This document shows, in pieces, positions 5,032 to 33,214 of a stretch of DNA of 64,000 nt (positions are counted from its first letter, which is position 1; each line of letters opens with the position of its first letter). The DNA comes from an uncultured Actinomycetes bacterium (GTDB lineage Bacteria; Actinomycetota; UBA4738; HRBIN12). The stretch lies in assembly GCA_963734275.1 (NCBI GenBank), contig CAVTGO010000013.1:128552-192551 (forward strand), given 5' to 3'. The notes under the pieces were generated by a model. It saw only the letters and a program-made list of their open reading frames with translations, did not search any database and had not been told where the DNA came from. Made by a program: the position numbers and the translations under genes.

Positions 5032-6243
5032 TCAGGCGCGAGGGCGTTCCCCGTCGGGGTCGTAGAAGGCCCGGTCCGTGACCGTCCCGATGGCCGACGC
5101 CTGGCCCTCGGCCGCGGTCACCGTCACCTCCTCGCCGAGTGCGGATGGCGGGAGGTAGGCCATCGCGAGCGCCCGGCCGAGCGAATGGCCCTGGTCGGCG
5201 GAGGTGACGGTGCCGACCGGCTCGCCGTCCAGACGCACCTCGTCGCCGATCGCGGGCACGAACGACAGGTCGGGGAACGCGATCCCGAGCAGCAGCCGTT
5301 CGACGCCCTCGTCGCGCTGGCGCCGCAGCGCCTCGCGACCGACGAACCCGTCCGAGTCGAGGTCGACGGCCCACGCGAGGTTCGCCTCGAGCGGCGAGGT
5401 CGTCTCGTTCACATCGAGGCCGTAGAGGGGGTACTTCTTCTCCATCCGCACGCTGCGCAAGGCGCCGAGACCGGCCGGCACGGCGCCGAGATCCCTGCCG
5501 GCGTCGAGCACCGCGTCCCAGACGTGCTCGGCGTAGTCGCGCGCGTAGAAGAGTTCGTACCCGAGCTCGCCCGAGTAGCCGGTCCGAGACAGGACCGCGG
5601 GGACCTCGGCGACGGTGGCGTCGGTGAAGCGGAAGTAGGGGAGCGCCTCGGTCGCCAGGTCGGCGTCGGTGATCCCGGACAGCAGCTCGCGCGAGCGCGG
5701 ACCCTGGACCGACAGGTACGCGGTGCCCGAGATCGTGTTCGTCACGTAGGCCCGCCGGTCCTCGGCGTGCTCTCGGACCCACGCCTCGACGACGTCGGCA
5801 CGCGCGGGGGTGGCCACCAGCCAGAAGTGCTCGGCCGAATGCCGGAAGCACGTGAGGTCGTCCACCATCCCGCCCTCCTCGTTGCACACGGCCGAGTACA
5901 GGACGCCGCCGTCGGTCAGGCGGCGGGCGACGTCGCGCACCAGGATCGTCTGCAGGAGCGCTTCGGCGTCGGGTCCCTTGATGTCGATCGGGCCCGAGTA
6001 GTACACGTCGTACACGCCGGCGGCGCCGCGGGTGGCGAGATGCTCGTCCTCGACGCTGGTGAACACCACCGCGGCGTCGAAGCCGATCCGGTCTGCCATC
6101 TCGGCTCCGGCCTCGAGCAGCTTGTGGAAGTACGGCGTGTGTCGGCGTGCCAACCGGAGCTCCGTTCCGGGCTCGGCGATCCGGACGGGGAGGAGGATAC
6201 GGCGTTCGGTCTCCCCCGTACCCGGCGTCAGGCACGCGAGAAC
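5032..6243 (-). CDS. aminomethyltransferase family protein (GcvT-like, folate-dependent)
   Basis: Collinear similarity to GcvT (TPYFHKLLEAGAEM..., GMVDDL, TGYSGELGYEL, GLGALRSVRMEKKYPLYG). The long N-terminal extension of the 528-aa ORF is R-rich and not GcvT-like. A GTG start near 6243-6246 is inferred. Confidence 0.75.
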   Translation of the reverse strand, partial: VLACLTPGTGETERRILLPVRIAEPGTELRLARRHTPYFHKLLEAGAEMADRIGFDAAVVFTSVEDEHLATRGAAGVYDVYYSGPIDIKGPDAEALLQTILVRDVARRLTDGGVLYSAVCNEEGGMVDDLTCFRHSAEHFWLVATPARADVVEAWVREHAEDRRAYVTNTISGTAYLSVQGPRSRELLSGITDADLATEALPYFRFTDATVAEVPAVLSRTGYSGELGYELFYARDYAEHVWDAVLDAGRDLGAVPAGLGALRSVRMEKKYPLYGLDVNETTSPLEANLAWAVDLDSDGFVGREALRRQRDEGVERLLLGIAFPDLSFVPAIGDEVRLDGEPVGTVTSADQGHSLGRALAMAYLPPSALGEEVTVTAAEGQASAIGTVTDRAFYDPDGERPRA

Positions 6244-6284
6244 CACCCGCGATGAGTAGCCCCGTCGTGAGCCGAAACGCTGTG
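6232..6284 (+). promoter_or_regulatory. conserved upstream element, copy 1 (candidate promoter/operator or leader RNA) preceding Zn-ribbon paralog A
   Basis: 53 nt (gcacgcGAGAACCACCCGCGaTGAGTAGCCCCGTCGTGAgCCGAAACGCTgtg) about 90% identical to 7918..7970. It ends 31 nt before the ATG at 6316. Confidence 0.5.
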
Positions 6285-13591: not shown

Positions 13592-14308
13592 TTACAGGGC
13601 CGGTTCGCCGAGCGTGACGCCGTCTGCCGAGCAACCGGAGCCGCCGGAGATGACCCAGTGTCTGTCACGGAACTCCAGGCCGACGTTTGCGATCGTCCGA
13701 TCTTCTCGCACCACCCGTACGGAGCCCGGGCGCTGCGGATATCCCGCCGCCTCGACGGTGTCCCCGGGCTGGAGCCCTATGAGCGCCTCCTCCGCGACGT
13801 CGGTGGGGGCGCCCGAGCCCGGAGGTTCGCCCGGCGTGGGACCCGTCACGTCGGCGGGGGCCACGAAGTCATAGATCAGGCTCCACGCCTCGTCGTCGGG
13901 CGCGCATCCGAGTTCTGGACTGACGTACATGCTCCCTGGGTCCAGGATGGGGAGTTCCTGGGTCGGCGGCTCGTCGCCGGTGCCGTGGTCGGTGAACGGC
14001 CAGCAGGCGACGCCGAGTGTCCCCGGCTCGATGCCGAGAACCCACTCGGATGGCCCCGAATCGACGTCCATACCGAGGCCGTCTAGGCTCGCCGGCTCGT
14101 CGAGGTGGCTCAGGACCTCGAGGTGCACGCCGTCTGCTTGAGCCACGACCTGCGGCGTGACGAGGGTCGTCGTCCCGTCGGCCTCGCATACGATCCTCGC
14201 GACGTCGGTGCCGGCCACCGGCTCCTCTGCCGACGTTCCCGGTGGCGGAGCATCGGCGCATGCTACGGCGAGCACGATCGCGACCACCGAGAAGCGGAGA
14301 CGCATCGG
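13592..14308 (-). CDS. secreted lipoprotein, hypothetical
   Basis: Internal Met gives the signal peptide MRLRFSVVAIVLAVAC with lipobox LAVAC. The upstream part of the 276-aa ORF is R-rich. Confidence 0.55.
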   Translation of the reverse strand, partial: PMRLRFSVVAIVLAVACADAPPPGTSAEEPVAGTDVARIVCEADGTTTLVTPQVVAQADGVHLEVLSHLDEPASLDGLGMDVDSGPSEWVLGIEPGTLGVACWPFTDHGTGDEPPTQELPILDPGSMYVSPELGCAPDDEAWSLIYDFVAPADVTGPTPGEPPGSGAPTDVAEEALIGLQPGDTVEAAGYPQRPGSVRVVREDRTIANVGLEFRDRHWVISGGSGCSADGVTLGEPAL

Positions 14309-14910
14309 CGCTTCTCCCTCAGTGACGATGTCGTGGTCGCCAACGACGAGCGAGGACGAGCGCCAACGTCGAGAGACCCATGGTTCCGAGGGCCGCGAGC
14401 CAGAGGGCCAGGCCCGTGCCACGCACGATGGATGGCCCCGAGCTCGCGAGTGACGCCCCGATCAGGAATGCGAACCAAGAGATCGCCACGAGGCGTTGAA
14501 CCCTGCGCGCAGATCCCAGCGACCGGACCGTAGGGCTCGTCGAAGCTGTCACCCGGTCAGTGCTCACCATCGAAGCATCCCATGAGCGCCGCCGTTGCGA
14601 ACTCCCGATGACGCCAGCCAGGATCGCGAACGCTCCGACGAGCTGCCATTCCAGCCAGCGGATGTCCGTGATGAAGTCCACGAGCGCCAGACTGCCGCCC
14701 GCTCCCGGTCCGACGGCGGCGACCCCGCCCAACACACCAGGACGCGACACCGTGTTGGCCGGTTCATGCGTCGCGACGCCAGCGCCCGGGTCCGACGCAC
14801 GAGCCCACGGTGACCGTTGGTCACGGTGGGCGGATTCCTTCCTGCGCACGTCGGCCGTACCATCGGGCGGCATCCACCGGGCGAGCCTGACCCCGGTTAC
14901 GAGGAGCGAC

Positions 14911-15570
14911 ATGAGAGAAGACCTCGAGATCCTGAAGCAAGGCCTGATCGGCGCGGAGCGCGACGCGGCCGTCGGCGCCGTTCAACGCCTCGTGGACTCG
15001 GGGATGGACCCGAAGGCGATCATGGAGGACGGCATGGCCGTCGCCATGTTCGACCTCGGCGAGATGTGGAAGCGCGGCGAGGTGTTCCTGCCCGAGGTCG
15101 TGGCCTCGGCCGCGATCTTCAAGATGTGCAACGCGATCGTGGAGCCGGCGCTCCTCGCGCAGCGACAGCCGGGGGACGAGCGGGCCGCGCTGGTGCTCCT
15201 CGCGACGGTGAAGGGCGACCTGCACGACCTCGGCAAGAACATGGTTGGTGCGATGCTGCGTACGTCCGGGTTCGAGGTGACCGATCTCGGCAAGGACGTG
15301 TCCGCGGACACGCTGATCGAGAAGATCACCGAGCTGAGCCCGCAGATCGTCGGGCTCTCGGCGCTCCTCACCACGACGGTCCCGTACCAGGAGACGGTCA
15401 TCCGCAAGCTCGAGGCGGCCGGCCTGCGCGACTCGGTCAAGGTGATGGTCGGAGGCGCGCCCGTCACGCCGGAGTGGGCCGACAAGATCGGCGCAGACGG
15501 CTACGCGAACAACGCGCCCGAGGCCGTCGAGGTCGCCCGCAAGCTCGTCGGGCTGGCCCAAACAGCGTGA
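14911..15570 (+). CDS. cobalamin-binding corrinoid protein (MtgC/MttC-like)
   Basis: B12-binding motifs DLHDLGKN (DxHxxG), SALLTTT and MVGGA. GAGGAG RBS. 219 aa. Confidence 0.85.
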   Translation: MREDLEILKQGLIGAERDAAVGAVQRLVDSGMDPKAIMEDGMAVAMFDLGEMWKRGEVFLPEVVASAAIFKMCNAIVEPALLAQRQPGDERAALVLLATVKGDLHDLGKNMVGAMLRTSGFEVTDLGKDVSADTLIEKITELSPQIVGLSALLTTTVPYQETVIRKLEAAGLRDSVKVMVGGAPVTPEWADKIGADGYANNAPEAVEVARKLVGLAQTA

Positions 15571-16430
15571 CCGTGGTCGCGACCACCGTCCTGCGCGGCC
15601 GGGAGGCCGAGGTCAGGATCGGCGACGAGCATCCGTTCGCGATCGTCGGCGAGCGGATCAACCCCACCGGCCGTGCGCGGCTGACCGAGGAGCTCGTCGC
15701 CGGCGACATGACGACGGTGCGGGCCGACGCGCTCGCGCAGGTGGAGGCCGGCGCGCGGATCGTCGACGTGAACGCGGGGATCCCGGGGTTCGACGAGGCC
15801 GAGATGCTCGCGAACGTCGTGCGCGCGGTGACCGAGGTCGTGGGCGTCCCGCTCTGCATCGACTCCTCCACGCCCGCGGTTCTCGAGGCCGTCCTGCCGA
15901 TCGTCCCGGGCAAGCCGCTCGTGAACTCGGTGACCGCCGAGCAGCACTCGCTCGAGCGCCTGCTCCCGCTGATCGCGCGGCACGGCGCGGCGATGATCGG
16001 GATGGCGAACGACGAGGAGGGCATCTCGATCGACCCGCAGGTGCGGCTGAAGGCCGCCCGCAAGGTCGTCGAGGCCGCCGAAGCGCACGGGATCGCGCGC
16101 GAGGACGTGGTGATCGACCCGCTCGCGATGCCGATCGGCGCCGAGCCCCGCGCGGCGACCGCGATGGTCGAGACGATCCGGCTGATCCGCGAGGAGCTCG
16201 GCGTAAACGTCTCCTGCGGCGCCTCGAACATCTCATTCGGCATGCCCGACCGTCCGGCGATCGACGCGTCGTTCCTGACGTTCGCGATCCAGGCCGGCAT
16301 GAACCTCGCCATCACGAACCCGCTGCACGAGCGGGTCCGCAAGGCGGTCCTCGCAGCGGACCTGATGCTCGGTCGCGACGCGCACGGCGCGGCGTGGATC
16401 GCCGCGCACCGCGCCGAGCTCAGACGGTAG
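15567..16430 (+). CDS. methylcorrinoid:tetrahydrofolate methyltransferase (pterin-binding domain, MtgA/MtrH-like)
   Basis: GTGA start/stop overlap with the corrinoid gene. Pterin-binding fold signatures (IVDVNAG, GMANDEEG, NISFGMP). Confidence 0.8.
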   Translation: MTVVATTVLRGREAEVRIGDEHPFAIVGERINPTGRARLTEELVAGDMTTVRADALAQVEAGARIVDVNAGIPGFDEAEMLANVVRAVTEVVGVPLCIDSSTPAVLEAVLPIVPGKPLVNSVTAEQHSLERLLPLIARHGAAMIGMANDEEGISIDPQVRLKAARKVVEAAEAHGIAREDVVIDPLAMPIGAEPRAATAMVETIRLIREELGVNVSCGASNISFGMPDRPAIDASFLTFAIQAGMNLAITNPLHERVRKAVLAADLMLGRDAHGAAWIAAHRAELRR

Positions 16431-16923
16431 AGCTGACCCCGATCCCTCCGCGGGTCTGCGCGCCGTACCGCTCCTTCTCCTTCTGGATGTCGAGCGGGCG
16501 CATGGCCATCTCGTCGGCGTCGGTGAGCCGGTCGGCCGGCACCAGCCAGCAGATCTCGAATTCGAGCCCGTCGGGGTCCTTGCCGTAGACGGCCTTCGTC
16601 GTCCCGTGGTCCGTCGCGCCCGTCATCGCGTTCCGGGACGCGAGCGCTGCCGCGATCCGCTCGAGCTCGTCCAGCGTGTCGACCTCCCAGGCGAGGTGGT
16701 ACAGCCCGACGGCCCCTCGGCCGGCCGGGGAGTCGGCGGCCCCCGACCCGATGGCGAACACGCCGAGGTCATGGTCGTTCGTGCTCGCCTCGGCCTGCAG
16801 GAACGCGGCCCGGCCCGGGATCTCGGTCTTCACGCGGAAGGCGAGCACGTCCCGGTAGAAGCCCACGGTCCGCTCGAGGTCCCGGACGTACAGCACGGCG
16901 TGGTTCAGCTGGGTGATGGGCAT
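16420..16923 (-). CDS. VOC-family protein (glyoxalase/bleomycin-resistance/extradiol dioxygenase fold)
   Basis: MPITQLNHAVLYVRDLERTVGFY... HLAWEV... The start was set at an internal Met; the ORF N-terminus is R/G-rich. Confidence 0.8.
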   Translation of the reverse strand: MPITQLNHAVLYVRDLERTVGFYRDVLAFRVKTEIPGRAAFLQAEASTNDHDLGVFAIGSGAADSPAGRGAVGLYHLAWEVDTLDELERIAAALASRNAMTGATDHGTTKAVYGKDPDGLEFEICWLVPADRLTDADEMAMRPLDIQKEKERYGAQTRGGIGVSSTV

Positions 16924-16982
16924 GACGGGTTCTCCTCTCGTTCGCTCGTGGAACGCGGGAGCCGCTCGGAATCTTCCGCCGG

Positions 16983-17870
16983 TCAGTACTCGGCGCGCAA
17001 GGCGAGCAGGACCGCGACCGTCGCCGCCACGGCGAGCAGGCCCGCCACGGCCACGAACCACGCGCCGAAGCCCGTGATGGCCAGCTCGATCGACAGCTCG
17101 TCGCTGAGCTGCTCGTAGACGTCCACCAGGCCACCGGCGGTCGTCGCGGTGAAGGCGGTGCCGCCGGTCGTCTCCGAGATCCGCGCCATCAGCTCGACGT
17201 TCGCGCCCGCAAGCGTGCCCGGCTCGAGGTCCTGTCCGAGCACGACCGTGTAGACGGGGACCTCCAGGTCGGCCGCGTGTGCCGCGGCGTCGTCGGGATG
17301 GACCAGGCTCCCCGTGTCCCGGCCGTCGGAGAGCACGATGATCGCCGCGGGCGACTCGCCCTGCTGGTCCCAGAGGGTCTCGATCGCGGCGACCGACGCC
17401 TCGATCCCGTCGCCGATCACGGTGCCCTCTCCCCGAGGCAGGTCGATCAGCCCGTCGATGACCTCCTGGTGCTCGGTCGTCGGGGGCACGAGCAGCTCGG
17501 CTTCGGCCGCGAAGGTCACCAGGCCGACCCGCAGGTCGCCCGGGAGGTCCTCGAGGAATGCGCGCGCCGCCTCCTTCGCGGCCTGGAGCCGCGTCGGCGC
17601 GACGTCGTCGCGGCTCATCGACTCGGAGATGTCGAGCACGAGCACGACCGTGCCCGGCGAGCCCTGAAGGAACCGGAACTGCGTGAAGGCGATCAGCAGC
17701 AGGATGCCGGCCCCGGCCATCAGGACGGCGGCGACACGCTTGGCCCGCCGTGCCCGGTCGATCTTGTTGCTCTTACGCCCCGGAGGCCCCTTCTGTGGCG
17801 GCCTGCCGAAGATCACCGCGACGGCCAGGATCGCCACGACCGAGATCACGAGGAGCACGAGCGCGGGCAC
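16983..17870 (-). CDS. von Willebrand factor A (VWA) domain membrane protein (BatA-like)
   Basis: N- and C-terminal TM helices. VWA MIDAS motif DISESMS. Confidence 0.8.
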   Translation of the reverse strand: MPALVLLVISVVAILAVAVIFGRPPQKGPPGRKSNKIDRARRAKRVAAVLMAGAGILLLIAFTQFRFLQGSPGTVVLVLDISESMSRDDVAPTRLQAAKEAARAFLEDLPGDLRVGLVTFAAEAELLVPPTTEHQEVIDGLIDLPRGEGTVIGDGIEASVAAIETLWDQQGESPAAIIVLSDGRDTGSLVHPDDAAAHAADLEVPVYTVVLGQDLEPGTLAGANVELMARISETTGGTAFTATTAGGLVDVYEQLSDELSIELAITGFGAWFVAVAGLLAVAATVAVLLALRAEY

Positions 17871-17972
17871 GTCCCAACGCTAGCAAGGGTTCCGTGAGGA
17901 CGGGGGGAGCCGGCCGGGACGCGAGACGCGGCAGCTCTGGCCGGGACCACGCGGGAGCCGACGCCCCGCGCT

Positions 17973-17987
17973 GTGACCTCAGGTCAC
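17973..17987. promoter_or_regulatory. perfect inverted repeat GTGACCT-c-AGGTCAC (candidate operator) in the divergent intergenic region upstream of the RACo/MttB operon
   Basis: 7-bp arms, 1-nt spacer. Lies about 100 nt upstream of the GTG start at 18084. Confidence 0.3.
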
Positions 17988-18083
17988 GAACCGCCGTTCC
18001 ACCATCGTTCCTGATAGTGGGACGATCGCCTCGTGAGAGGCGGCCGGACATGACCCTGGGTAAGATGCGGAGGCCGCGCTAAG

Positions 18084-20531
18084 GTGCGCAAGCTCCAGGT
18101 CACCTACCTGCCGAGCGGCAAGACCGCCCACGTCCCCGAGGGGACCACGCTGTTCAACGCGGCTCACTGGGCCGGCCTGCCGATCGAGTCCACCTGCGGG
18201 GGGCGGGGCACGTGCGGCAAGTGCAAGGTCCGCGTCGTCGAGGGCATCCACGAGCCGACGCCGGCGGACCACCGAAAGCTCCCCGGCCAGGAGTTGGACT
18301 CCGGCTGGAGGCTCTCGTGCCAGCTCGCGGTCTCGGTCGACGCGGTGTGCGAGGTGCCGAACCTCCAGGTCACGCCGAAGGCCGCGACGATGGGTGTGGG
18401 GCGGTTCGTCCTGCTCGAGCCCAACGTGCAGAAGGTCCTCGTCGCGGTCGAGCCGCCGTCGCTCGAGGACGCGCGGAGCCACATCCGCCGGCTGCTGGAC
18501 GCGCTCGACGCCGAGGGGCTCGAGCCCACCTTCGGCCCGGCCGTGCTGCCGCGCCTGGCGCTCGCGATGCGCGACGAGCCGACGGAGGTCACCGCCACGA
18601 TCGTCGGGGAGCACCTCGTGGACGTCGAGGCCGGCGACACGAGCGGCACGATGTTCGGCGTCTCGCTCGACATCGGCACGACGACCGTCGTGGCCACCCT
18701 CGTCGACCTCACCACCGGCGCCGCCGCGGCCGTCGAGTCGACGATCAACAGGCAGGCGCCCTTCGGCGCGGACGTCATCGCGCGGATGGGGCACGCGATG
18801 ACCGGCCCCCAGGCGATCGACGACCTCCGCGCCGCGGCCCTCGATACGGTCAACGGGCTCCTCGAGAGCGTGTGCGCGACGGGCGGCGTCGCGCTCGAGG
18901 ACGTCTACGAGGTGGTGGTCGTCGGCAACGCGACGATGCTGCACCTGTTCCTCGGCGTCGACCCGCGCTCGATCGCGCTGTCGCCGTTCGTCGCGACCTT
19001 CCTCGAGCCGCAGGATCTGCGAGCGTCCGAGCTCGGCGTCGAGATCCATCCCGACGGCCGGGTCGCGCTGTTTCCCTCGATCGGAGCCTACGTTGGGGCC
19101 GACATCGTGGGTGACGTCGTGGCGACCGGCCTCGCGCGCGAGGAGGCCGTGCGGCTTCTCGTGGACATCGGCACGAACGGCGAGATCGTGTGCGGCAGCT
19201 CCGAGCGCGCGGTCGCCACCGCCGCGCCCGCGGGCCCGGCGTTCGAGGGCGGCCAGATCCTCCACGGGATGCGGGCCACCGAGGGTGCGATCGAAGGGGT
19301 CGTGCTCGACGAGGACGGGGTGCGCCTGCAGGTGATCGGCGGGGACGTGGCGCCCCGCGGGATCTGCGGGTCCGGCCTGATCGACGCGGTGGCTCAGCTC
19401 CGCCTAGCCGGGCTGTTGAGGGACAACGGGATCCTCCTGTCGCGCGACGAGGCCACGCTCGCGGGGCACCCGCTCGCCGGCCGCCTGGTCGACCGCGACG
19501 GCATCCGGGCGTTCGAGCTCGCCGAGGGCGTCCTCCTCACCCAGCTCGACGTCCGCGAGCTCCAGTCGGCCAAGGGCGCAATCGCGACCGGCATCGAGGT
19601 TGCGATGGACGCTCTCGGCGTCGGGGCGGAGGATCTGGACGAGGTGATGCTGGCCGGGTCCTTCGGGACGTACATCGACCCCGAGAGCGCGCGCGTGCTG
19701 GGGCTCGTGCCGCCGGTCCCGGTCGAGCGGATCCGGGCGGTCGGCAACGCCGCCAGCGAGGGTGCCAAGATGGCCCTCATGTCCTTCCGCGAGCGCGAGG
19801 TGGCGTTCGAGCTCCCGGCGTTCGTCGAGTACCTGGAGCTCTCGGGCGCCCCGGACTTCAACGACCGCTTCATCCGCAACCTCGCGTTCCCCGAGCTCGA
19901 CAAGCGCGGAGCGCGCCGAGTGACCTCCACCGGCGCCTCGGTGGCGTTCATCGCGTGCGGCGCGGTCGCCAAGGACACGGCGGCGATCGTGAAGGAGCGA
20001 GGCTGGAGCGCCGACGTGCACGGCATCTCGAGCGACCTGCACATGACGCCGCTCGACATCGGTCCGGCCGTCGAGGAGAAGCTCCAGGCGTTGCTGCCGA
20101 GGTACGACCGCGTGATCGTCGTCTACGGCGACTGCGGGACCGGCGGACGCCTGGACGCCGTCCTCGAGAAGTACCCGGCGGTCCGTCCGGCGGGGTTCCA
20201 CTGCTTCCAGTGGTACGCCGGCGAGCTGTACCGCCGGTTCGAGGACGACATCGGCATCTACTTCCTCACCGACTGGCTGGTGCAGAACTGGGACCGCGCC
20301 GTGATCCACGGCCTCGGCCTGGACCGCTTCCCGTGGCTGAAGGACGAGTACTTCGGCAACCTCACGCGGATCCTGTTCGTCCGCCAGCATCCCGATCCGG
20401 GGCGCGAGACCCGCGCGCGGGAGATCGCCGAGTGGATGGGCAAGCCGCTCGAGATCCACGACCTCGGAACGAAGCCGCTCGAGGACCTGCTCGTGCCGCT
20501 CATGGAGGAGACCTCGGATGTTCACGCCTGA
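18084..20531 (+). CDS. corrinoid reductive activase (RACo-like: 2Fe-2S ferredoxin + ASKHA ATPase) fused to a C-terminal DUF1638-like domain
   Basis: N-terminal plant-type ferredoxin motif CGGRGTCGKCKV. Central ASKHA-like region (GVSLDIGTTTV..., LVDIGTNGEIV). C-terminal roughly 200 aa (YDRVIVVYGDCGTGG...FLTDWL) resembles DUF1638. GGAGG RBS. Confidence 0.85.
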   Translation: MRKLQVTYLPSGKTAHVPEGTTLFNAAHWAGLPIESTCGGRGTCGKCKVRVVEGIHEPTPADHRKLPGQELDSGWRLSCQLAVSVDAVCEVPNLQVTPKAATMGVGRFVLLEPNVQKVLVAVEPPSLEDARSHIRRLLDALDAEGLEPTFGPAVLPRLALAMRDEPTEVTATIVGEHLVDVEAGDTSGTMFGVSLDIGTTTVVATLVDLTTGAAAAVESTINRQAPFGADVIARMGHAMTGPQAIDDLRAAALDTVNGLLESVCATGGVALEDVYEVVVVGNATMLHLFLGVDPRSIALSPFVATFLEPQDLRASELGVEIHPDGRVALFPSIGAYVGADIVGDVVATGLAREEAVRLLVDIGTNGEIVCGSSERAVATAAPAGPAFEGGQILHGMRATEGAIEGVVLDEDGVRLQVIGGDVAPRGICGSGLIDAVAQLRLAGLLRDNGILLSRDEATLAGHPLAGRLVDRDGIRAFELAEGVLLTQLDVRELQSAKGAIATGIEVAMDALGVGAEDLDEVMLAGSFGTYIDPESARVLGLVPPVPVERIRAVGNAASEGAKMALMSFREREVAFELPAFVEYLELSGAPDFNDRFIRNLAFPELDKRGARRVTSTGASVAFIACGAVAKDTAAIVKERGWSADVHGISSDLHMTPLDIGPAVEEKLQALLPRYDRVIVVYGDCGTGGRLDAVLEKYPAVRPAGFHCFQWYAGELYRRFEDDIGIYFLTDWLVQNWDRAVIHGLGLDRFPWLKDEYFGNLTRILFVRQHPDPGRETRAREIAEWMGKPLEIHDLGTKPLEDLLVPLMEETSDVHA

Positions 20532-21966
20532 GACGGCCCCGGCGGTGCTGTCCGACGAGCAACTCGCCCAGATCCACGAGACCGCCATGCGGATCTGCGA
20601 GGAGATCGGCCTCGACGTCCTGCACGACGGCGCCCGCAAGCTCCTTTCCGAGGCCGGCCTGAAGGTCGACGGCGACCGCGTCCGGTTCGACCGCGGGTTC
20701 GTGGAGGAGCAGGTCGCGAAGGCCCCGGCGTCGTTCGGGCTGCGCGCGCGCAACCCCGAGCGCTCGCTCGAAGTCGGCACCGGCACGCCCGTGTGGATGA
20801 ACGTCGGCGGGCCGCCGTTCGCGAGCGACCTCGACGAGGGGCGCCGCAGCGGCCGCGCGCAGGACCACGACGCCCTCGTGAAGCTCACGCAGGCGACCGC
20901 GGTCCTGAACTGCGTCCAGACCGGTGCGGTCGAGTCGGTCGACCTCGACGTGACCACCCGGCATCTCGACATGGAGTACTCGACGATCCGGTGGTCGGAC
21001 AAGCCGTACGTGACCTACGGGACCAGCGGCCCGAAGGCGCGCGACGGGATCGCGATGGCGGAGATCGTGCACGGCGGGCGCGAGGCGATCGAGCGAACGC
21101 CGGCGCTCATTGGCGTCGTGAACCCGAACAGCCCGCTCGTGTGGGACTTCCGGATGACCGACGCCCTGATCGCGTGGGCCGAGGCCAACCAGCCGGTGAT
21201 CGTGACGCCGTTCCTGCTGGCCGGCGCGACGAGCCCGGTCTCGATGGCGGGCGGGTTCGCCCAGCAGGCCGCCGAGGCCCTCTCGGGCGTGGCGCTGGCG
21301 CAGCTCGTGCGGCCGGGCGCGCCCTGCCTGTACGGATCGTTCTTCACGGTGACCGACATGCGGACCGGCGCGCCGGCATTCGGGACGCCCGAGGGCGTGC
21401 TGGCCGTGCTGGCCGGGGCGCAGATCTCGCGTCGCTACGGGCTGCCGTTCCGCGGCGGCGGCGGGCTCTCGAGCTCGAACGCCGTGGACGCGCAGGCGGC
21501 GGCCGAGACCCAGAACATGCTGTGGGCGACGCTGCTCGCCGGCACCGACGTGGTGCTCCACGCCGCGGGCTGGCTCGAGGGCGGGCTGACCGCCTCGTTC
21601 GAGAAGTTCGCGATGGACGTGGAGCTCCTGTCGCAGTTCCGGCGGATGGGGCAGGGGATCGGGTTCGGCGACGAGGAGCTGGCGTTCGACGCGCTGAAGG
21701 CGCTCGGGCCCGGCGGCCTGTTCCTGGAGTCCGACCACACGATGGCGCACTTCAAGGAGTGGCTCACGATGAGCCCGATCTTCCAGACGCAGGACTTCGC
21801 GACGTGGGAGATGTCGGGCTCGGTCGGGCCGGCGGAGCTCGCCAATGCGCGGTGGAAGGAGCTGCTTGCGTCCTACGAGGACCCCGGGATCGACGGGGCC
21901 GTGGACGAGGAGCTCCGCGCCTACCTCGAGCGCCGCAAGCAGGATCCGCCCGAGGACGAGGACTGA
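20518..21966 (+). CDS. MttB-superfamily methyltransferase, non-pyrrolysine type (quaternary amine:corrinoid methyltransferase, MtgB-like)
   Basis: 482-aa uninterrupted ORF (no in-frame TAG). The TIM-barrel MttB family pattern is present throughout. Start overlaps the RACo gene end. Confidence 0.9.
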   Translation: MFTPETAPAVLSDEQLAQIHETAMRICEEIGLDVLHDGARKLLSEAGLKVDGDRVRFDRGFVEEQVAKAPASFGLRARNPERSLEVGTGTPVWMNVGGPPFASDLDEGRRSGRAQDHDALVKLTQATAVLNCVQTGAVESVDLDVTTRHLDMEYSTIRWSDKPYVTYGTSGPKARDGIAMAEIVHGGREAIERTPALIGVVNPNSPLVWDFRMTDALIAWAEANQPVIVTPFLLAGATSPVSMAGGFAQQAAEALSGVALAQLVRPGAPCLYGSFFTVTDMRTGAPAFGTPEGVLAVLAGAQISRRYGLPFRGGGGLSSSNAVDAQAAAETQNMLWATLLAGTDVVLHAAGWLEGGLTASFEKFAMDVELLSQFRRMGQGIGFGDEELAFDALKALGPGGLFLESDHTMAHFKEWLTMSPIFQTQDFATWEMSGSVGPAELANARWKELLASYEDPGIDGAVDEELRAYLERRKQDPPEDED

Positions 21967-22088
21967 GCGAGCTCTCCTCGCGCCTCGGTTCAGGTGGACG
22001 ATCACCGAGATCGCGACCCCGTTCCGACTTGCCCTGGCAGCCATCGGGGCGGGAGGATGGCCGGGTTCATCGTAGATAGGGGGAGGGT

Positions 22089-22553
22089 ATGCGCGGGAAG
22101 GCGAGGATCATGCTTGCTGCCGCCGGTATCTCGGCGGTCGTCCTGGTGATCTCGTTGATCACCGTATCGAGCGCGGCCACCGTCACGAGGATCCACGTGA
22201 TCGAGCACGCGACGACCGACGTCGTGATCGACACGGACGGTGACGGAGCCGACTCGACAGGAGACCTGCTCACGTTCCACAACGAGCTGTTCGACGCGGA
22301 GAACGGCGTGGTCGTCGGCACCAATCAGGGCGACTGCATCCGTATCGAGGTCGGCGTGAGCTGGGAATGCCGGTTCGTGAACTTCCTCGAGGGCGGCTCG
22401 ATCACGGTGGAAGGGCCGTTCCTGGATGCCGGGCCCTCGACCTTCGCTATCACCGGAGGGACCGGTGTCTTCCGCGACGCCGGGGGAACGATGCGCCTGA
22501 TCTCGAACGAGGACGGCACCGAGTTCGACTTCATCTTCCGGGTCATCCGGTAG
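22089..22553 (+). CDS. secreted allene-oxide-cyclase/dirigent-like beta-barrel protein, hypothetical
   Basis: N-terminal signal-anchor MRGKARIMLAAAGISAVVLV. ITGGTGVFRDAGG motif typical of AOC-barrel-like proteins. GGGGGAGGG RBS. Confidence 0.55.
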   Translation: MRGKARIMLAAAGISAVVLVISLITVSSAATVTRIHVIEHATTDVVIDTDGDGADSTGDLLTFHNELFDAENGVVVGTNQGDCIRIEVGVSWECRFVNFLEGGSITVEGPFLDAGPSTFAITGGTGVFRDAGGTMRLISNEDGTEFDFIFRVIR

Positions 22554-22747
22554 TCGCATCCGAGTCGTCGCCCGTCCTGTTGCGATGTTGAGCTTGAGCC
22601 ACGGGGTTCAGCTCGAGGTAACGTCGGCTCGGCGCCTCTTGGCCTGGATTGGGTCCCCTACGCGGACATCTGGTGGGGCATGCTCGCTTGCGCTCTCGAT
22701 CGAAACAGAACAGACTCGCGCTGGTTCGGTCATGGTCGAGCTCGGGT

Positions 22748-23578
22748 ATGGTCGAGGAAGGGGTCGGCGAAGGCGTGGAGCAGCCGCTTCCGGCGGAGCG
22801 TCACCGGCGCATCCAGGAGCTCCTTCGTGACCGTCGCGTCGTCCGCGTGTCGGCCCTCTCCGAGATCATGGGCGTCTCCGAGGTCACGGTCCGGCGCGAC
22901 CTCGAGGCCCTCGAGCGCCGCGGCCTCCTCGAGCGGACGCACGGAGGCGCAGTGCTCACCCAGCGGATGCGAGCTGAGCCCGCCTATCTCGACGCCGCGA
23001 ACAGCAACCCATCGGAGAAGCGGCAGATCGGGCAGACGGCGGCCGGGCTCGTGGAACCGGGGGACGCCGTCTACCTGAACGGCGGAACGACGACCCTCGA
23101 GGTGTTCCGCAATCTCCGCGCCCCGGGCGTTACGGTGATCACGAACCACGTCGGGATCGCGCTCGAGGCACCGGACCACGACATCGACCTCCTTCTCCTC
23201 GGAGGCCACTATCGGGCGCCGAGCAACTCGGTGGTCGGGCCGTTCGCTACCGACGCGCTCCGGCGGACGCACGCGACCAAGGCGTTCATCGGCGTCGAGG
23301 GGATCAGCATGGGCTCCGGTCTCACGACACCGGTCGCCGCCGAGGCGGAGATCGCGCGCGTGATGATCGAGCAGACCCGCGGCCGGGTCGCGGTCGTCGC
23401 CGACCACTCGAAGATCGGGACCGTGGCCGACTTCGTGATCGGACCGCTGGGTCAGGTCGATCGCCTGATCGTGGACGCTGGGATCGGCATGGAGATCCGT
23501 GACCAGTTCGTGGAGGCGGGCGTGGACGTGATCGTCGCCGGGGAGATGGCCGCGCCGGCTGGGGTGGGTCGTGGATAA
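22748..23578 (+). CDS. DeoR/GlpR-family transcriptional regulator
   Basis: N-terminal HTH (RHRRIQELLRDRRVVRVSALSEIMGVSEVTVRRDLEALE) and C-terminal DeoR sugar-binding domain. Confidence 0.8.
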   Translation: MVEEGVGEGVEQPLPAERHRRIQELLRDRRVVRVSALSEIMGVSEVTVRRDLEALERRGLLERTHGGAVLTQRMRAEPAYLDAANSNPSEKRQIGQTAAGLVEPGDAVYLNGGTTTLEVFRNLRAPGVTVITNHVGIALEAPDHDIDLLLLGGHYRAPSNSVVGPFATDALRRTHATKAFIGVEGISMGSGLTTPVAAEAEIARVMIEQTRGRVAVVADHSKIGTVADFVIGPLGQVDRLIVDAGIGMEIRDQFVEAGVDVIVAGEMAAPAGVGRG

Positions 23579-24340
23579 GCGGTCGTTCGAGGCCGAGGCC
23601 GATCGGCTGGTCCGAGGCGCGCGCGCGAATGACATCACGCTCCGCGTGCTCGGAGCGCTCGCGTTCCACCGGCGCTGCCCGAGCCACTCCCACCTACAAG
23701 AGCGCCTGAAGCGCGTCTACACGGACATCGACTTCGGAGGCTACGGGAAACAGGTCCGCCAGATCCGCGGGTTCCTGGTCGCCCAGGGCTACGTCGAGGA
23801 CGAGATGACGTACGTCGAGTCCCAGGGCTCGCGTCTGGTCCTGAACCATCCGGGCATCGGATTGCACATCGACGTGTTCCTCGACAAGCTCGAGTTCTGC
23901 CACACGGTCGACTGGAAGGGCCGACTGGAGCTCGATGACTGGACGATACCGCTCGCCGAGATGCTGCTGCAGAAGATGCAGATCGTCCAGATCAACGAGA
24001 AGGACCTGATCGACACGATCATGCTGCTCCTCGAGTTCCCGCTGACCGAGGACGACAGCGGCGTGAACATCGCGCGCGTCGCTGGTGTGTGCGCGAAGGA
24101 CTGGGGCTGGTGGCGCACGCTCACGATGAACCTCGGCAAGGTTCGGCAGATGGCCGGGCATACGAGCGATCTCGAGCCCGACGAGACAGCGCCGCGTGGC
24201 GGAACAGGTCCACGCCGCCCTCGAGCGGATCGAGAGCGAGCCGAAGTCGCGGGCGATGGAGGATGCGCGCCAAGGTGGGTGACCGCAAGAAGTGGTACCG
24301 AGAGGTGGGTGAGCTGGCCGACCGGGTCCAGGAGCTCTGA
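23571..24340 (+). CDS. hypothetical protein; the C-terminal third appears frameshifted
   Basis: The first roughly 200 aa are protein-like (MDKRSFEAEADRLV...). Beyond about 24170 the reading frame decays and protein-like sequence continues in other frames. Confidence 0.35.
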
Positions 24341-24343
24341 AGC

Positions 24344-25340: not shown

Positions 25341-25375
25341 CCCGCACCTGGAGGCGTCGAGCACAAGGAGGGGGG

Positions 25376-27014: not shown

Positions 27015-27084
27015 CGGGTAGCCGGACGCGGTGGTGGTGGGGCGGGGCCGTTGGCCCCGCCCCATCCGTCTCCGGGAGGGCTCG

Positions 27085-29535
27085 GTGACCGAACGGGTCC
27101 GCGCGGTCGTGATCGGCGGCGGCGTCGCCGGGTGCAGCGTCGCGCTGCACCTGGCTAAGGCCGGGCTGGACCGACGTGCTCCTGTTGGACAAGGGCGAGC
27201 TGACGAGCGGGTCCACGGCGCACGCGGCCGGGTTCGTCACGATGTTCAACCCCTCGCCGACGATGATGCGCGTTCCGCCGCTACTCGATCGAGCTGTACC
27301 GCGAGCTCGGGGTGTTCGAGACGGTCGGGAGCCTGCGGATCGCCTCGAGCGCCGAGTAGCTGCTAGAGCTGCAACGCGGGGTGTCCCGCGCGCGAGGGAT
27401 CGGCCTCGACGTCGAGCTCTGTCGGGCCCGACGAGACGCTGAGGCTGATGCCGGCGGCGAGCGCCGAGTCGCTCTTCGGGAGCGTCTGGGTGCCCGGCGA
27501 CGGCTTCCTCGACCCGCACACCGCGACGTACGCGCTCGCGGCGGCCGCGCGCGCGCTCGGGCGGCACGATCCGGACGGGAGCGCGCGTGACGGCGATCGA
27601 GCTCTCCGAGCGGCGGGAGGTGACCGCGATTGTCGTCGACGGCGAGCGGATCGAGTGCGAGGTCGTCGTGGACGCCGCCGGGATCTGGGCGCCGCGGGTC
27701 GCGGCGATGGTCGGGGCTCCGGGTCCCGTCGACGCCGGTCGACCACCAGCACATCGCGCTGAAGGCGGTGCCGGGGGTCGGAGCTGCCGCGCGACATGCC
27801 GTGCTTCCGCGACCCGGACAACCTCGTCTACGGGAAGTCCGAGGCCGGCGGCATCGTGTTCGGCGGGTACGAGCCCGATCCGGTCGCTCGATGGATCGAC
27901 GGCGCGCCCTGGGAGCACGGCGGCGCGCTCGCTGCCGCCGGACATGGATCGGTTCGAGCAGCTGCTGCGCGGCGCCGCCCGCCGGTTCCCCTTCATCGAG
28001 GACGCCGAGATCGTGAAGCTCGTCTGCCATCCCGACGCGATGACGCCCGACGCGAACCCGCTCGTCGGCCCGATCGCCGACGGTCCGCGGGCCTGTGGCT
28101 CGCGGCCGGGCTGTCGCTGAACGGCTTCGGTGGGGCCGGCGGGCTCGGCAAGGCGCTCGCCGAGTGGATCACGGCCGGCGAGACCGAGCTCGACCTCACC
28201 GCCGTACCGGCCGTGGCGGTTCGGGCGCGTGCACGAGGACGCCGGCTGGGTCGCGCGAGCTGGCGCGCGAGGCCTATCGCTACTACTACCTCCTGCGCTA
28301 TCCGTTCGATCACGACGAGTGGGGACGGCCGAAGCGCGTGTCGCCGCTGCACGGCCGGCTCCAGGAGCCGGCGCCGTGTTCCAGGCGAAGAACGGGTGGG
28401 AGCGCGCCGAGCGCTTCGAGCCGGGCGAGGCCGTGGCGGCGGGCCGGGCGCGGATCAGCGGGCGTTCGGGTGGGCGCGGCCGCCGTGGCTCGACCGGGTG
28501 GGCGAGGAGCATCGCGCGCGTCCGCGAGCGCGCCGGGTCTGTCGACCTGTCAGCTCGTTCGGGAAGATCGAGGTGGCCGGGCCGGACGCGCTCCGGCTGC
28601 TCGAACGGGCGGCGGCGAACCGCGTCGACCGGCCGGTGGGCTCGATCGTCTACTCGCCAGTTCCTCGATCGGCGGGGCGGGATCGTCGGCCGACGTCACG
28701 ATCGTCCGGCTCGCCGAGGACGGTTCCGCGTGGTCACCGGCGTCGGGCGACCGTCGACGGCGACCTCGGCTGGCTGCGGATGCACGTGCGTGACGGAGAC
28801 GGGCGCCGTCGAGCTCCGGGACGCGAGCGAGGAGCTCGCCGTGATCGCACTCTGGGGTCCGGCCGCTCGCGACGTCCTCGGCGGCGACGACCGAGGACGA
28901 CGTGTCGAACGAGGCCTTCCCGACCTGAGCGGCGCGAGCGCTGCGGATCGGTGCCGCGCCGGTACTGGGCCCAGCGGATCAGCTACGCCGGCGAGGCTCG
29001 GCTGGGAGCTGTGGGTCGAGCCGGCGGTGGGCGGTCCAGGCCTGGGACCGGCTGTGCGGCGGCGGGCGAACCGCTCGGTCTCGAGCCGTGCGGGTACCGG
29101 GCCTCGACGGCCTGCGCATCGAGCAGGGGTTCCGGTACCTCGGGACCGACCTCACCGCGGGCGACACGCCCGACGAGGCGGGGCTTGGCCTTCGTCGCGT
29201 TCGATCCCTCGAAGGACTTCGTCGGGCGCGACGCCGTCTTCGCCGCGCGCGAGGCGGGGCCGCCGACGCGGCGGCTGCGGACCCTGCTCGTTGGCGCAGG
29301 CTACGTCACGGCCTACGGGGGAGAGGCGGTGCACGCCGGCGACGAGGTGGTCGGGCGGGTGCGGAGCGTGCGCGTACGGCTACACCGTCGGACCGGAAGG
29401 TCGCGACTCGCCTACCTGCCGTCGGCCCTCGGCCCCGGCGATCGCGTGGAGGTGGAGGTGTTCGGCGAGCTGGTTCCGGCCGAGGTGGCCGAGGACGTCC
29501 TGGTGGATCCCGAGGGCAAGCGAGTGCGGAGCTGA
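27085..29535 (+). pseudogene. dimethylglycine dehydrogenase/oxidase-like (FAD oxidoreductase + GcvT-type folate domain), heavily frameshifted paralog of 30781..33214
   Basis: FAD motif VIGGGVAGCSVALHLAKAG, then LLDKGELTSGSTAHAAGF in the next frame; the GcvT-like C-terminus (FVGRDAVF..., ...VDPEGKRVRS) sits in further frames. Many single-nucleotide indels. Confidence 0.65.
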
Positions 29536-30444: not shown

Positions 30445-30475
30445 CGCATCCGCGCCCGCGTCCGAGGGTGATGGC

Positions 30476-30775
30476 GTGCGCGTGATCGCGACCGGCGAGG
30501 CGGTCGAGTTCGTCCGCGACCACGGCGGGCGGGTGTTCGTCTGGCCCGTCGTGATGGATGTGCCCTCCGGCGGCGCCGTCGTCTTCACCTTGGAGGCGTC
30601 CACCGAGTCGCCGGGCGCGGCGCACGAGTTCGTTCGGTTCGGCGGCGAGGGGTTCGACGTGCTGATCGACGCGACGGGTCACGGCGTCCCCGATGAGCTG
30701 CACCTCGCGATCAAGGGCTGGCGCCGGAGGCAGATCCGCGCCTACTGGAACGGTAACTCGTTCGGCCGAGCCTGA
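30476..30775 (+). CDS. hypothetical small protein (99 aa)
   Basis: Intact ORF with GTG start and protein-like composition, between the two convergent modules. Confidence 0.35.
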   Translation: MRVIATGEAVEFVRDHGGRVFVWPVVMDVPSGGAVVFTLEASTESPGAAHEFVRFGGEGFDVLIDATGHGVPDELHLAIKGWRRRQIRAYWNGNSFGRA

Positions 30776-30780
30776 GCAGG

Positions 30781-33214
30781 TCAGACGCGGATCCGCTCGC
30801 CCTTCGGGTCGTAGAGCGGGTCGTCGACGACGACGGCGCCCACGAGCTCGCCGAAGACGTCGACCGTCAGTCGCGTTCCCGAGGCGGCGAGCTCGGCCGG
30901 GAGGTAGGCGAACGCGATGCTCTGGCCGATCGCGTAGCCGATCCCCCCGCTCGTCACGCGCGAGACCACCCGGTCTCCGCTGCGAACCGGCTCGTTGCCG
31001 AGGGCCATCGCGGTGGCACCGGCGAGGGTCAGGCACCGCAGGGACCTCGATACGCCGCCCTCCCGCTGGGTCTCGAGCGCCTCGCGGCCGACGAACGCTC
31101 GGTCGTCCCACGCGACGGCGAACCCGAGACCGGCCTCGAGCGGCGTGTCGTCGGCCGTGACGTCCGAACCCCACGCGCGGTAGCCCTTCTCCAGCCGCAG
31201 GGAGTCGATCGCCCGGTAGCCGGCCGGGACCAGCCCGTGCGGCGTGCCGGCCTCGACCAGCGTGTCCCAGAGCGCGGCCCCGAACTCGGCCGGCGGGTAC
31301 AGCTCCCAACCGAGCTCGCCCACGTAGGTCACCCGGAGCGCGAGGCACGGGACGTCGCCCACGGTGATCTCGCGCGCGGTCATGTACGGGAACGCCTCGT
31401 TCGACAGGTCGTCGGCGCACGCGGCGGAGAGGATCTCCCGGGCCTTCGGGCCCCACATGCCCAGGCAGGCGAGCGCGGACGTGACGTCGCGGAGCTCGAC
31501 GCCCGGATCGTCCTCCCGCCTGCGTTTCTGCAGCCACGCCAGGTCGTGGTTCCCCGAGGCCGTGCCGGTGACGATCCGGTACCGATCCTCGGTCCAGGCG
31601 CGTGACCGTGACGTCGGCCTCGATGCCGCCGCGGCGGTTCAACATCTGCGTGTAGACGACGCTGCCGAGCGGCCGGTCGACGTCGTTCGCGCAGACCCGC
31701 CGCAGGAATGTCGTTGCTCCCGGGCCGGACACCTCGAGCTTCGCGAAGCTCGACTCGTCGAACAGCCCTGCCGCCTCTCGGGTCGCGAGGTGTTCGGCCG
31801 GGATCGCGGTCGACCAGTGCTCCCCCGCCCATCCTCGCGGTCGCAGGTCCTCGAAACGCTCGTCCTCGTTGGTGGCGAACCAGTTCGCCCGTTCCCACCC
31901 CGCCTTCTCGCCGAACTCGGCGCCGAGCGCCTGCAGCCGCGCGTACGTGGGGGATGTCTTCAGCGGCCGACCCGCCTTCGACTCCTCTCCTGGGTACCGG
32001 ACGTCGTAGTGCGTCGAGTAGATCTCGTACGCCTTGGCGAGCGCGTAGTCGCGGTCACGGTACGCGGGGCCGAACCGCCGGACGTCCATCTTCGACAGGT
32101 CCATCGAGGGCTCGCCCTCGACGATCCACTCGGCGGTGGAGCGGCCCACCCCCGCGGCTCCGGTGATGCCGTGTGCGCAGAACCCCGCGGCCACGAACAG
32201 GCCCGAGACCTCGGTCTCGCCGAGGATGAAGTCGTCGTCGGGCGTGAAGGCCTCGGGGCCGTTGATGAAGCGGTTGACCTCCACGGTCTGCAGCGACGGG
32301 ATCAGCGCGAACGCGCCCTCGGCGATCGCCTCGAACCGCGGCCACTTCTCCTCCAGCAGGCGGTGGTTGAAGTCCTGCGGGATCGGCGTGTGGACGTTCC
32401 AGGGATCCGGGTTCCGCTCGTAGCCGCCGACGACCAGACCGCCCACCTCCTCTCGCACGTAGACGAGGCGGTCGGGGTCGCGGAGCGTCGGGAAGTCGGG
32501 CCTGACACCCTCGATCGGGCGGGTGATCAGATACTGGTGCTCCATCGGGACGACGGGGATCTCCACACCGGCCATGCGCCCGAGCTCGTTGGCCCACAGG
32601 CCTCCCGCGATCACCACCACCTCGGCCTCGATGCGACCGTGGTCGGTGACGGCGCCGGTCACGCGGCCGCCTTCGACCGGGATCTCCACGACCCGGACGC
32701 CGGGACGGATCCGTGCGCCGCGCGACCTGGCGCCTTCGGTGAAGGCCGACGTGAGACCCGAGGGGTCCAGGTGCCCGTCCGTCGGGACGAACGCGGCGCC
32801 CAACACGTCCGTGCGGTCGATCAGCGGGAAGCGGTCGTGCGCCTGCGCCGCAGAGACGATCTCGATCGGCAGGCCGAACGACTCGGCCCATCCGGCCATG
32901 CGCGCGAGCGCCTCGAGCCGGTAGGCCGAGGTCGCGAGGTGCAGGGTTCCCACCTGGTGCCAGCCTGGGTCGACGCCGGTCTCCTCGTGCAGGCGGGGAT
33001 ACAGGTCGACGCCGTACATCATCATCCGCGTGTGGCTGACCGAGTTCCGCAGCTGCGCGACCAGGCCTGCCGAATGGAACGTCGAGCCGCTCGTGAGCTC
33101 GGAGCGCTCAACGAGCACGACGTCGGTCCAGCCGAGCTGCGTGAGGTGGTAGGCGATGCTGGCACCGGCGACGCCTCCGCCGACGATAACGACGCGCGCG
33201 CGATCCTCGGCCAC
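30781..33214 (-). CDS. dimethylglycine dehydrogenase/oxidase-like bifunctional FAD oxidoreductase + aminomethyltransferase domain; one apparent +1 frameshift near 31585-31595 (possible pseudogene or sequencing error)
   Basis: N-terminus VVIVGGGVAGASIAYH...TSGSTFHSAGL; C-terminus (ORF 30781..31458) is GcvT-like. The frames join if one C is removed from gaccgagg: ...VTRLDEDRYRIVTGTASGNHDLAW.... Confidence 0.7.

Follow-up and report, generated by a model that had tools for sequence, protein, structure and literature searches.

Cobalamin-dependent demethylation of quaternary amines has been described in both anaerobic and aerobic bacteria. The anaerobic MtgB/MtgC/MtgA systems with RamQ/RamA, known from D. 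hafniense (DSY3156-3157) and from Eubacterium limosum (MtpB, MtcB, MtyB and MthB), combine a three-component methyl transfer with ATP-dependent reductive activation. In the aerobic Ruegeria pomeroyi it was shown genetically that MtgC and MtgD are required for betaine demethylation and methionine synthesis, and two PF06253 proteins together with RamA-like and DUF1638 proteins were induced on betaine (Mausz et al. 2025, PMC12478193). Here we analyzed a 64-kb stretch of DNA from an uncultured Actinomycetes bacterium, hereafter the window, in which the gene cluster at 14911-21966 probably codes for the five proteins of an MtgBCD-type system for cobalamin-dependent methyl transfer in uncultured high-GC (guanine plus cytosine) Actinomycetota, as predicted from its sequence.

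Other recent reports concern the same kind of genes. The mtgB1 gene was validated genetically in Phaeobacter (2025 preprint, bioRxiv 10.64898/2025.12.19.695462), about 5% of marine mtgC reads were from Actinomycetota (PMC12478193), and Actinobacteriota metagenome-assembled genomes (MAGs) expressing corrinoid methyltransferase genes were found in peat (Ellenbogen et al. 2023, PMC10805028). The initial annotation of the window had called the taxonomic context unusual and the system one of mainly anaerobic Firmicutes; this view has to be dropped given the aerobic systems in Ruegeria (PMC12478193) and Phaeobacter (bioRxiv 10.64898/2025.12.19.695462) and the Actinobacteriota MAGs (PMC10805028).

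Comparison with described systems

The window holds the same five families, namely PF06253, PF02607/PF02310, PF00809, Fer2 plus ASKHA and PF07796, as the aerobic MtgBCD(E) systems of Ruegeria pomeroyi, Phaeobacter inhibens and Sinorhizobium meliloti. The S. meliloti neighbourhood (CP090106.1, 2207816-2239225; the record is labelled plasmid pSymB and is 3.7 Mb long) has genes for an MttB homologue, a cobalamin-binding protein, DUF1638, MetF-like proteins, a methyl-tetrahydrofolate (methyl-THF) cobalamin methyltransferase and an ASKHA protein, along with bmt and a betaine/proline ABC transporter gene, and co-located mtgBCDE and reactivation modules have been described for these genes (Mausz et al., PMC12478193). 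The S. meliloti counterparts are identical to the window proteins at 42% (MttB), 39% (cobalamin-binding protein), 33% (DUF1638), 46% (methyl-THF cobalamin methyltransferase) and 34% (ASKHA protein). Because all five proteins fall at 33-46% identity, the window locus is, as judged by these similarities, an actinobacterial member of an already known kind of system. Searching of a plasmid collection gave only alphaproteobacterial homologues, at 40-44% identity. The PDB structure 4yyc was deposited as 'putative trimethylamine methyltransferase'; its first block of 103 residues recurs letter for letter in the MttB homologue encoded in the S. meliloti neighbourhood, and the two appear to be the same protein.

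The window locus also differs from each of the described systems. Its genes form one compact locus in which the RACo, DUF1638 and MttB genes are translationally coupled, whereas those of Ruegeria and Phaeobacter are scattered, and unlike the aerobic MtgBCD(E) systems it has no mtgE, bmt or metF near the cluster. The roseobacter MtgC is placed near CmuA by Mausz et al., while the window corrinoid protein scores best on methanogen-type MttC/MtbC models, a comparison made by description only. The three-component logic and the ATP-dependent reductive activation are common to the anaerobic systems, but the window activase belongs to the RACo type, its N terminus carrying a [2Fe-2S] domain (415 bits on AcsV and just 120 on the RamA model TIGR04270) and DUF1638 is an obligatory neighbour in loci of the window type. 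The four-domain architecture is that of the RACo of the CoFeSP system of Carboxydothermus hydrogenoformans (3zyy/4c1n), matched over residues 3-606 with 357 bits; its partner here, however, is a small corrinoid protein of the methylamine type and not CoFeSP, and the activase is followed by DUF1638. A strictly anaerobic life is improbable for the host, because FAD-dependent oxidoreductases similar to dimethylglycine dehydrogenase (DMGDH) are encoded nearby.

Domain identities, gene order, translational coupling, the 27 related MAG loci and the Sinorhizobium homology are direct observations; the scheme that follows, with its chemistry, transfer direction, substrate and DUF1638 role, is one that we infer. 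The MttB-family enzyme would bind an acidic methylated quaternary amine and pass one of its N-methyl groups on to the corrinoid, in the Co(I) state, of the small B12-binding protein. The pterin-binding MtgD would then hand the methyl group to tetrahydrofolate (THF), giving methyl-THF for one-carbon oxidation or assimilation, and by analogy with Ruegeria the group may feed methionine synthesis as well. Corrinoid that is adventitiously oxidised to Co(II) would be re-reduced by the RACo/RamA-like protein using ATP, with its [2Fe-2S] and ASKHA ATPase domains, and DUF1638, whose coupled start lies immediately downstream of RACo, may assist this reactivation. Supporting context is given by the DMGDH-like genes, amino-acid permease and DeoR regulator that lie downstream of the cluster in the window and in two related contigs (L001 and L009, see below).

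Current understanding is not overturned by this locus, and what remains new is the altered substrate pocket of its clade and the role of DUF1638. The data would extend cobalamin-dependent quaternary-amine demethylation, recently recognised in aerobic marine Proteobacteria, to abundant uncultured Actinomycetota of soil and groundwater. Since the operon is single and compact, its five parts could be cloned together.

Gene cluster and domain evidence

The window has about 70% GC and the reading frames were chosen by third-position GC. The features are collected in Table 1.

Table 1. Positions and profile evidence of the features discussed, in window coordinates (aa, amino acids).
Feature	Coordinates	Strand	Evidence
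Stand-alone GcvT-like folate-dependent aminomethyltransferase	5032..6246	-	PF01571 255 bits + PF08669
Adenylate cyclase, nearest upstream gene	12143-13510	-	Profile match
mtgC-like corrinoid (cobalamin-binding) protein, 219 aa	14911..15570	+	PF02607 + PF02310
mtgD/mtgA-like methylcorrinoid:tetrahydrofolate methyltransferase, 287 aa	15567..16430	+	PF00809, PRK07535
VOC/glyoxalase-family gene	16420..16923 (/17061)	-	PF00903 57 bits
VWA-domain gene	16983..17870	-	PF13519 + PF00092
RACo/RamA-like ATP-dependent reductive activase of corrinoid proteins	18084..19919	+	Fer2, RACo_linker, Raco_middle, RACo_C_ter
DUF1638 protein, 203 aa as separate gene	19920..20531	+	PF07796 74 bits
Non-pyrrolysine MttB-superfamily substrate:corrinoid methyltransferase, 482 aa	20518..21966	+	PF06253 565 bits
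DMGDH/sarcosine-dehydrogenase-like gene (FAD oxidoreductase + GcvT domains)	about 27085..29520	+	tblastn, L009 orthologue
Second DMGDH-like paralogue	30787..33160	-	tblastn pieces in frames -2 and -1; frameshift near 31590

The initial annotation had proposed four components, a corrinoid protein, a methyl-THF methyltransferase, a RACo-type activase and an MttB-family enzyme, and the Pfam and NCBIfam profile searches gave a strong match for each of them at its position. Domain and structure matches agree that the system is corrinoid-dependent, of the MtgB/MtgC/MtgA(D) type, and that its reductive activase is of the RACo kind. The count of four was nevertheless one short, as a fifth conserved component, DUF1638, had been overlooked inside the activase reading frame.

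The mtgC product gave 102 bits for B12-binding and 50 bits for B12-binding_2 in Pfam, and both cap and Rossmann parts are present. The predicted DxHxxG motif was read as D-L-H-D-L-G (D102-x-H104-x-x-G107), together with SxL and GG motifs, and among solved structures the M. barkeri MttC corrinoid protein is the best match, with 160 bits. A ribosome-binding site, GAGGAG, lies 7 nt upstream of the start. The stop of mtgC and the GTG start of mtgD overlap as GTGA at 15567-15570, as had been annotated. The mtgD product matched Pterin_bind (PF00809) with 106 bits and PRK07535 with 298.3 bits, which is above the NCBIfam cut-off of 259, and its top PDB matches 4o0q and 2yck are methyl-THF:corrinoid methyltransferases.

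The RACo-type protein carries four Pfam domains ([2Fe-2S] ferredoxin, linker, middle and ASKHA) over residues 9-607, has Cys38, Cys44, Cys47 and Cys79, and matched the C. hydrogenoformans RACo (PDB 3zyy) with 357 bits. The PF06253 match of the MttB homologue is full-length, with residues 9-476 on profile positions 32-498 of 500. Its gene starts 14 nt inside the end of the DUF1638 gene with GGAGGAG before the ATG. It is an uninterrupted frame of 482 codons with no internal stop and no in-frame UAG, which bears out the annotated absence of an amber codon.

The one-base fusion of RACo and DUF1638

The open reading frame (ORF) 18084-20531 of 815 aa, annotated as a RACo-type activase, does hold the four RACo domains, but it also holds a complete DUF1638 (residues 613-815, with the PF07796 match at 650-803). 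A second public contig (L001; ENA ERZ25039588 contig_58226), which encodes an identical MttB protein, has RACo (612 aa) and DUF1638 (203 aa) as separate genes, with the TGA of RACo overlapping the DUF1638 start. Between window positions 10518 and 23500 the two sequences differ at 11 positions, of which 2 are indels. The first falls at 14739, where the sequence before mtgC is non-coding; the second, an extra G at 19899, is the sole indel inside the cluster. At this site the window reads CTCGACAAG and L001 reads CTCACAAG; the extra G, 20 nt ahead of the usual RACo stop, moves the RACo frame into that of DUF1638. A second blastn match of L001 to mtgCD was an artefact of comparing L001 and L002 together, and direct comparison found no internal repeat.

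The two genes are separate in 28/28 related loci, where they overlap as RTGA (ATGA or GTGA). The closest 120 DUF1638 relatives are all stand-alone proteins of 198-242 aa, and among the best 150 family representatives 149 have 75-359 aa and one has 645 aa, none being near 815 aa. The 815-aa product was absent from the protein collection searched, although products of the neighbouring genes were present, and several related long-read MAG loci have obvious frameshift splits. Because of the sister contig, the 28 loci, the stand-alone relatives, the absent record and the frameshift-prone MAG loci, the RACo-DUF1638 fusion most likely reflects an indel of the assembly or a frameshift private to this sequence and not a designed fusion. 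A genuine strain-level fusion, a Rosetta stone in which both proteins act as one unit, would agree with the position of the extra G outside any homopolymer, with the replacement of just the last 7 residues of RACo by an in-frame join to a complete DUF1638, and with the constant adjacency and coupling of the two genes. We nevertheless consider it improbable, as the base is missing from a near-identical sister assembly, none of the 120 closest relatives is fused and frameshift splits are common in the related long-read loci. For annotation the lesson is that a single-base indel in a metagenome assembly yielded an apparent multidomain "activase".

As a protein in its own right, DUF1638 has Cys13, His41, Cys72 (in a DCGTGG loop), His94 and Cys95 conserved in 86-100% of an alignment of 114 diverse family sequences, S. 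meliloti included. Its fold resembles a Rossmann fold and has no informative neighbour in the PDB, and the conserved Cys and His residues suggest a metal, Fe-S or cofactor site. In Phaeobacter the RamA-like (Fer2 + DUF4445) and DUF1638 genes were cofit with methionine synthesis and had one shared phylogenetic profile, with no function proposed for DUF1638 (Price et al. 2018, PMC5764234). The protein is treated here as a putative accessory of corrinoid reactivation, and its invariant coupling between activase and mttB gives independent comparative support for such a role.

Family placement and substrate pocket of the MttB homologue

The MttB homologue was compared with D. hafniense MtgB, S. meliloti 4yyc and M. 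barkeri MttB. It matched 4yyc with 382 bits (43% identity), D. hafniense MtgB (2qne/9yce) with 352 bits (38% identity) and the pyrrolysine MttB of M. barkeri (7xcl) with 130 bits. The annotated non-pyrrolysine placement is therefore upheld, with no clustering with the pyrrolysine trimethylamine enzymes. The source names of these proteins, 'trimethylamine--corrinoid protein Co-methyltransferase', and TIGR02369 as the sole NCBIfam match would point to a trimethylamine methyltransferase system, but the TIGR02369 score is 289 bits against a cut-off of 525, the ORF without UAG leaves no pyrrolysine, the scores favour the non-pyrrolysine members (352-382 against 130 bits), and D. hafniense MtgB does not use trimethylamine (PMC13080624). 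A trimethylamine system is in effect refuted.

In D. hafniense MtgB the glycine-betaine motif consists of Y97 and F356, which make cation-pi contacts, and R312 and H348, which bind the carboxylate (PMC13080624, 2026). Both carboxylate-binding residues are conserved among characterised family members, R312 in all of them, Y97/F356 were called part of the minimum glycine betaine motif, and the changes Y97A and F356L raised the Km several hundred-fold (PMC13080624). The positions were mapped on a HMMER alignment and, for 120 clade members aligned together with D. hafniense MtgB and 4yyc, by MAFFT. At positions 97/312/348/352/356 the window protein and all 120 relatives have G/R/H/W/G, S. meliloti 4yyc has Y/R/H/W/G and D. 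hafniense MtgB has Y/R/H/I/F. The carboxylate-binding R312 and H348 are thus shared with D. hafniense and invariant in 120/120 clade members, whereas the aromatic pair is replaced by Gly/Gly in the window protein and in 120/120 members; 4yyc differs from the window protein in keeping Tyr at 97. Trp352 is invariant in the clade and common to the rhizobial 4yyc.

Because R312 and H348 are kept and the aromatic cage of the Firmicute enzyme is lost, the MttB homologue is most likely specific for an acidic quaternary amine, as far as residues can predict. The initial annotation rightly held that the substrate could not be read from sequence. The glycine-betaine motif of D. hafniense MtgB is present only by half. 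We place a little under half of our confidence on glycine betaine, slightly less on another acidic betaine and the remainder on something else. Glycine betaine is the single most likely candidate, not an established one, because DMGDH genes are present in the sub-lineage and betaine is abundant.

A stricter proposal is that the enzyme is a strict glycine betaine methyltransferase like D. hafniense MtgB and that the locus starts a route from betaine through dimethylglycine and sarcosine to glycine. It draws on two DMGDH-like genes and a GcvT-like gene within 5-11 kb, on the retained R312 and H348, and on the closest solved relative, 4yyc, which comes from the S. meliloti neighbourhood with bmt and a glycine betaine/proline ABC transporter gene. 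Set against this are the Gly/Gly pair in 120/120 members, read beside the several hundred-fold Km effects in D. hafniense (PMC13080624), the identity of just 38% to that enzyme, and a DMGDH block that is found in 3/30 sequences, counting 29 loci of the actinobacterial type and the window, and is frame-disrupted in the window. We regard the strict form as possible but somewhat doubtful. The annotated route from betaine to dimethylglycine and sarcosine is likewise plausible, with the reservation that the DMGDH block is confined to the window, L001 and L009, that it is frame-disrupted and that the cage is absent.

A bolder joint proposal concerns both the pocket and DUF1638. With its enlarged pocket the clade enzyme may act on some quaternary amine different from glycine betaine, and corrinoid reactivation in organisms that are not strict anaerobes may need DUF1638 as a partner that binds metal or takes part in redox chemistry; we put this forward tentatively, as rather unlikely. 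If true, the MttB superfamily would gain a novel substrate specificity. The altered pocket makes the clade a candidate for the use of a different betaine.

Distribution and conservation among relatives

Scanning one genome for each GTDB species gave 27 loci, 24 of them in MAGs named Actinomycetota or Actinomycetes; one further MAG (L013) is named only "bacterium" and one bin is named delta proteobacterium. Counted by locus, 26 carry one of the names Actinomycetota, Actinomycetes or "bacterium" and one lies in the delta proteobacterium bin. The actinobacterial MAGs came from soil, groundwater and long-read bins of the Microflora-Danica type. The order (mtgC)-mtgD-RACo-DUF1638-mttB is co-directional in 27/27 scan loci and in L001 and L002 as well, contiguous wherever the contig extends far enough, and mtgC directly precedes mtgD in the closer relatives. 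Among the best 120 listed relatives, MttB is 70-82% and DUF1638 79-90% identical to the window proteins.

The cluster in the bin 'uncultured delta proteobacterium' (L027, CAVQUW010000003.1) is of the actinobacterial type, with MtgC 81%, DUF1638 82% and RACo 69% identical to the window. Given these identities of 69-82% the contig is probably mis-binned, the other possibility being transfer of the cluster. In loci L016-L024 and L026, MttB is 67-70% identical to that of the window and a GT87 glycosyltransferase gene occupies the place of mtgC.

The VOC and VWA genes between mtgD and RACo were found only in the window, L001 and L004, and at the same spot L029 has two other small reverse-strand genes. 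The annotated division of the cluster into two co-directional pairs is correct in so far as the two genes lie there on the opposite strand; their restriction to three sequences shows it to be a local, lineage-specific insertion and not a feature of the system. Both genes are probably intervening and not part of the methyl-transfer system.

Several observations weigh against a quaternary-amine demethylation system of the MtgBCD type and temper our confidence in it. The scores of three proteins lie below curated NCBIfam cut-offs: the mtgC product with TIGR02370 (193.9 against 215.3), MtgC NF047995 (183 against 310) and MtbC (195 against 350), the activase with the equivalogs AcsV NF040756 (415 against 800) and RamA TIGR04270 (120 against 500), and the MttB homologue with the TIGR02369 equivalog, as given above. 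The aromatic pair of the pocket is missing, and in the sub-lineage of L016-L024 and L026 mtgD is not adjoined by a corrinoid-protein gene, so that its corrinoid protein must be encoded elsewhere. The flanks in most related loci are unrelated to methyl transfer (GT87 glycosyltransferase, ABC-F, RlmN, TetR, aminotransferase, peptidase), and no betaine transporter was seen among the examined flanks. No cobalamin riboswitch was detected by Rfam upstream of mtgC or RACo, and no homocysteine methyltransferase (PF02574/MtgE), MetH or MetF was found in the 64-kb window.

Part of these data could be read in another way, partly overlapping with the demethylation system, in which the cluster is primarily the housekeeping core of a split methionine synthase, made of MtgC, MtgD, RACo and DUF1638 with a homocysteine methyltransferase encoded elsewhere, and MttB merely feeds methyl groups to the shared corrinoid, on the dual-function pattern of Ruegeria. 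The need for MtgC, MtgD, RamA-like and DUF1638 proteins in methionine synthesis of Ruegeria and Phaeobacter (PMC12478193, PMC5764234), the apparently housekeeping neighbours in most related loci and the strong conservation of MttB and DUF1638 would fit this. But no PF02574-type homocysteine methyltransferase was found in the window or the examined flanks, and in all loci without exception the operon ends with a translationally coupled mttB, which ties the operon to demethylation and not to methionine synthesis alone. Such a primarily biosynthetic core is therefore rather unlikely, while a dual role that includes methionine synthesis, by analogy with Ruegeria, is possible.

Folate-linked neighbours and other features of the window

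The initial annotation had also placed DMGDH-like and GcvT-like genes beside the cluster. The GcvT-like gene does not adjoin it: the nearest upstream gene is the adenylate cyclase, and the GcvT-like gene lies 8.7 kb upstream and scores below the NCBIfam GcvT cut-offs. Two DMGDH-like genes do exist, though 5-11 kb downstream and both frame-disrupted in the window. For the forward-strand gene, tblastn with the intact orthologue of L009 (807 aa) gave pieces in frames 1, 2 and 3; in L001 it is split once. GCV_T and GCV_T_C domains at 30781-31458 fall within the reverse-strand paralogue. The whole downstream block, with an allene-oxide-cyclase (AOC)-like gene, DeoR, two hypothetical genes, amino-acid permease, DMGDH-like gene and kinase, was found only in the window, L001 and L009.

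Window 23500-32000 shows an abrupt divergence of about 10% from L001 12980-21449, with nearly all of the 136 alignment gap openings here, while the preceding 13 kb are almost identical. It breaks the amino-acid permease (25358-27011), the forward DMGDH-like gene and its reverse-strand paralogue, and merges the two hypothetical genes into one 589-aa ORF (23571-25340). Poor consensus, strain mixture or gene decay could be the cause; whichever it is, the argument from neighbouring DMGDH and GcvT genes is weaker than first stated.

Directly after mttB a small AOC/dirigent-like beta-barrel protein is encoded at 22089-22553 (+), followed by the DeoR regulator, and this pair also follows the cluster in L009 with 74% and 84% identity. 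Two kinase genes of the choline-kinase/APH family, at 29925-30485 (+, truncated) and 33217-34131 (-), flank the DMGDH-like genes; both score best, below the cut-off, against GntI, the guanitoxin pre-toxin N-oxide kinase. A phosphorylated amine substrate such as phosphocholine, on the model of MthB/MthK, was considered because of these kinases and left as a weak lead, since they are of the GntI small-molecule type, unlike the serine-kinase-like MthK (PMC12155760), and lie 8-11 kb off in this sub-lineage only.

Upstream of mtgC, about 600 nt (14306-14910) hold no convincing gene; a low-scoring reverse-strand ORF lies at 14319-14912, and the region is near-exactly conserved in L001. No Rfam hit at the gathering threshold was obtained in the whole window, and at E<=1 the region 14200-18150 gave only a chance PrrB/RsmZ match (E 0.92). 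The scan of 14200-22700 for sigma-70 promoters and intrinsic terminators was empty, which is uninformative for an actinobacterium of 70% GC. The rest of the window is ordinary chromosome, with ABC exporters, ilvBNC, leuA/leuB/leuCD-type genes, PAS histidine kinases, a GGDEF-EAL protein, an MFS transporter and aminotransferases.

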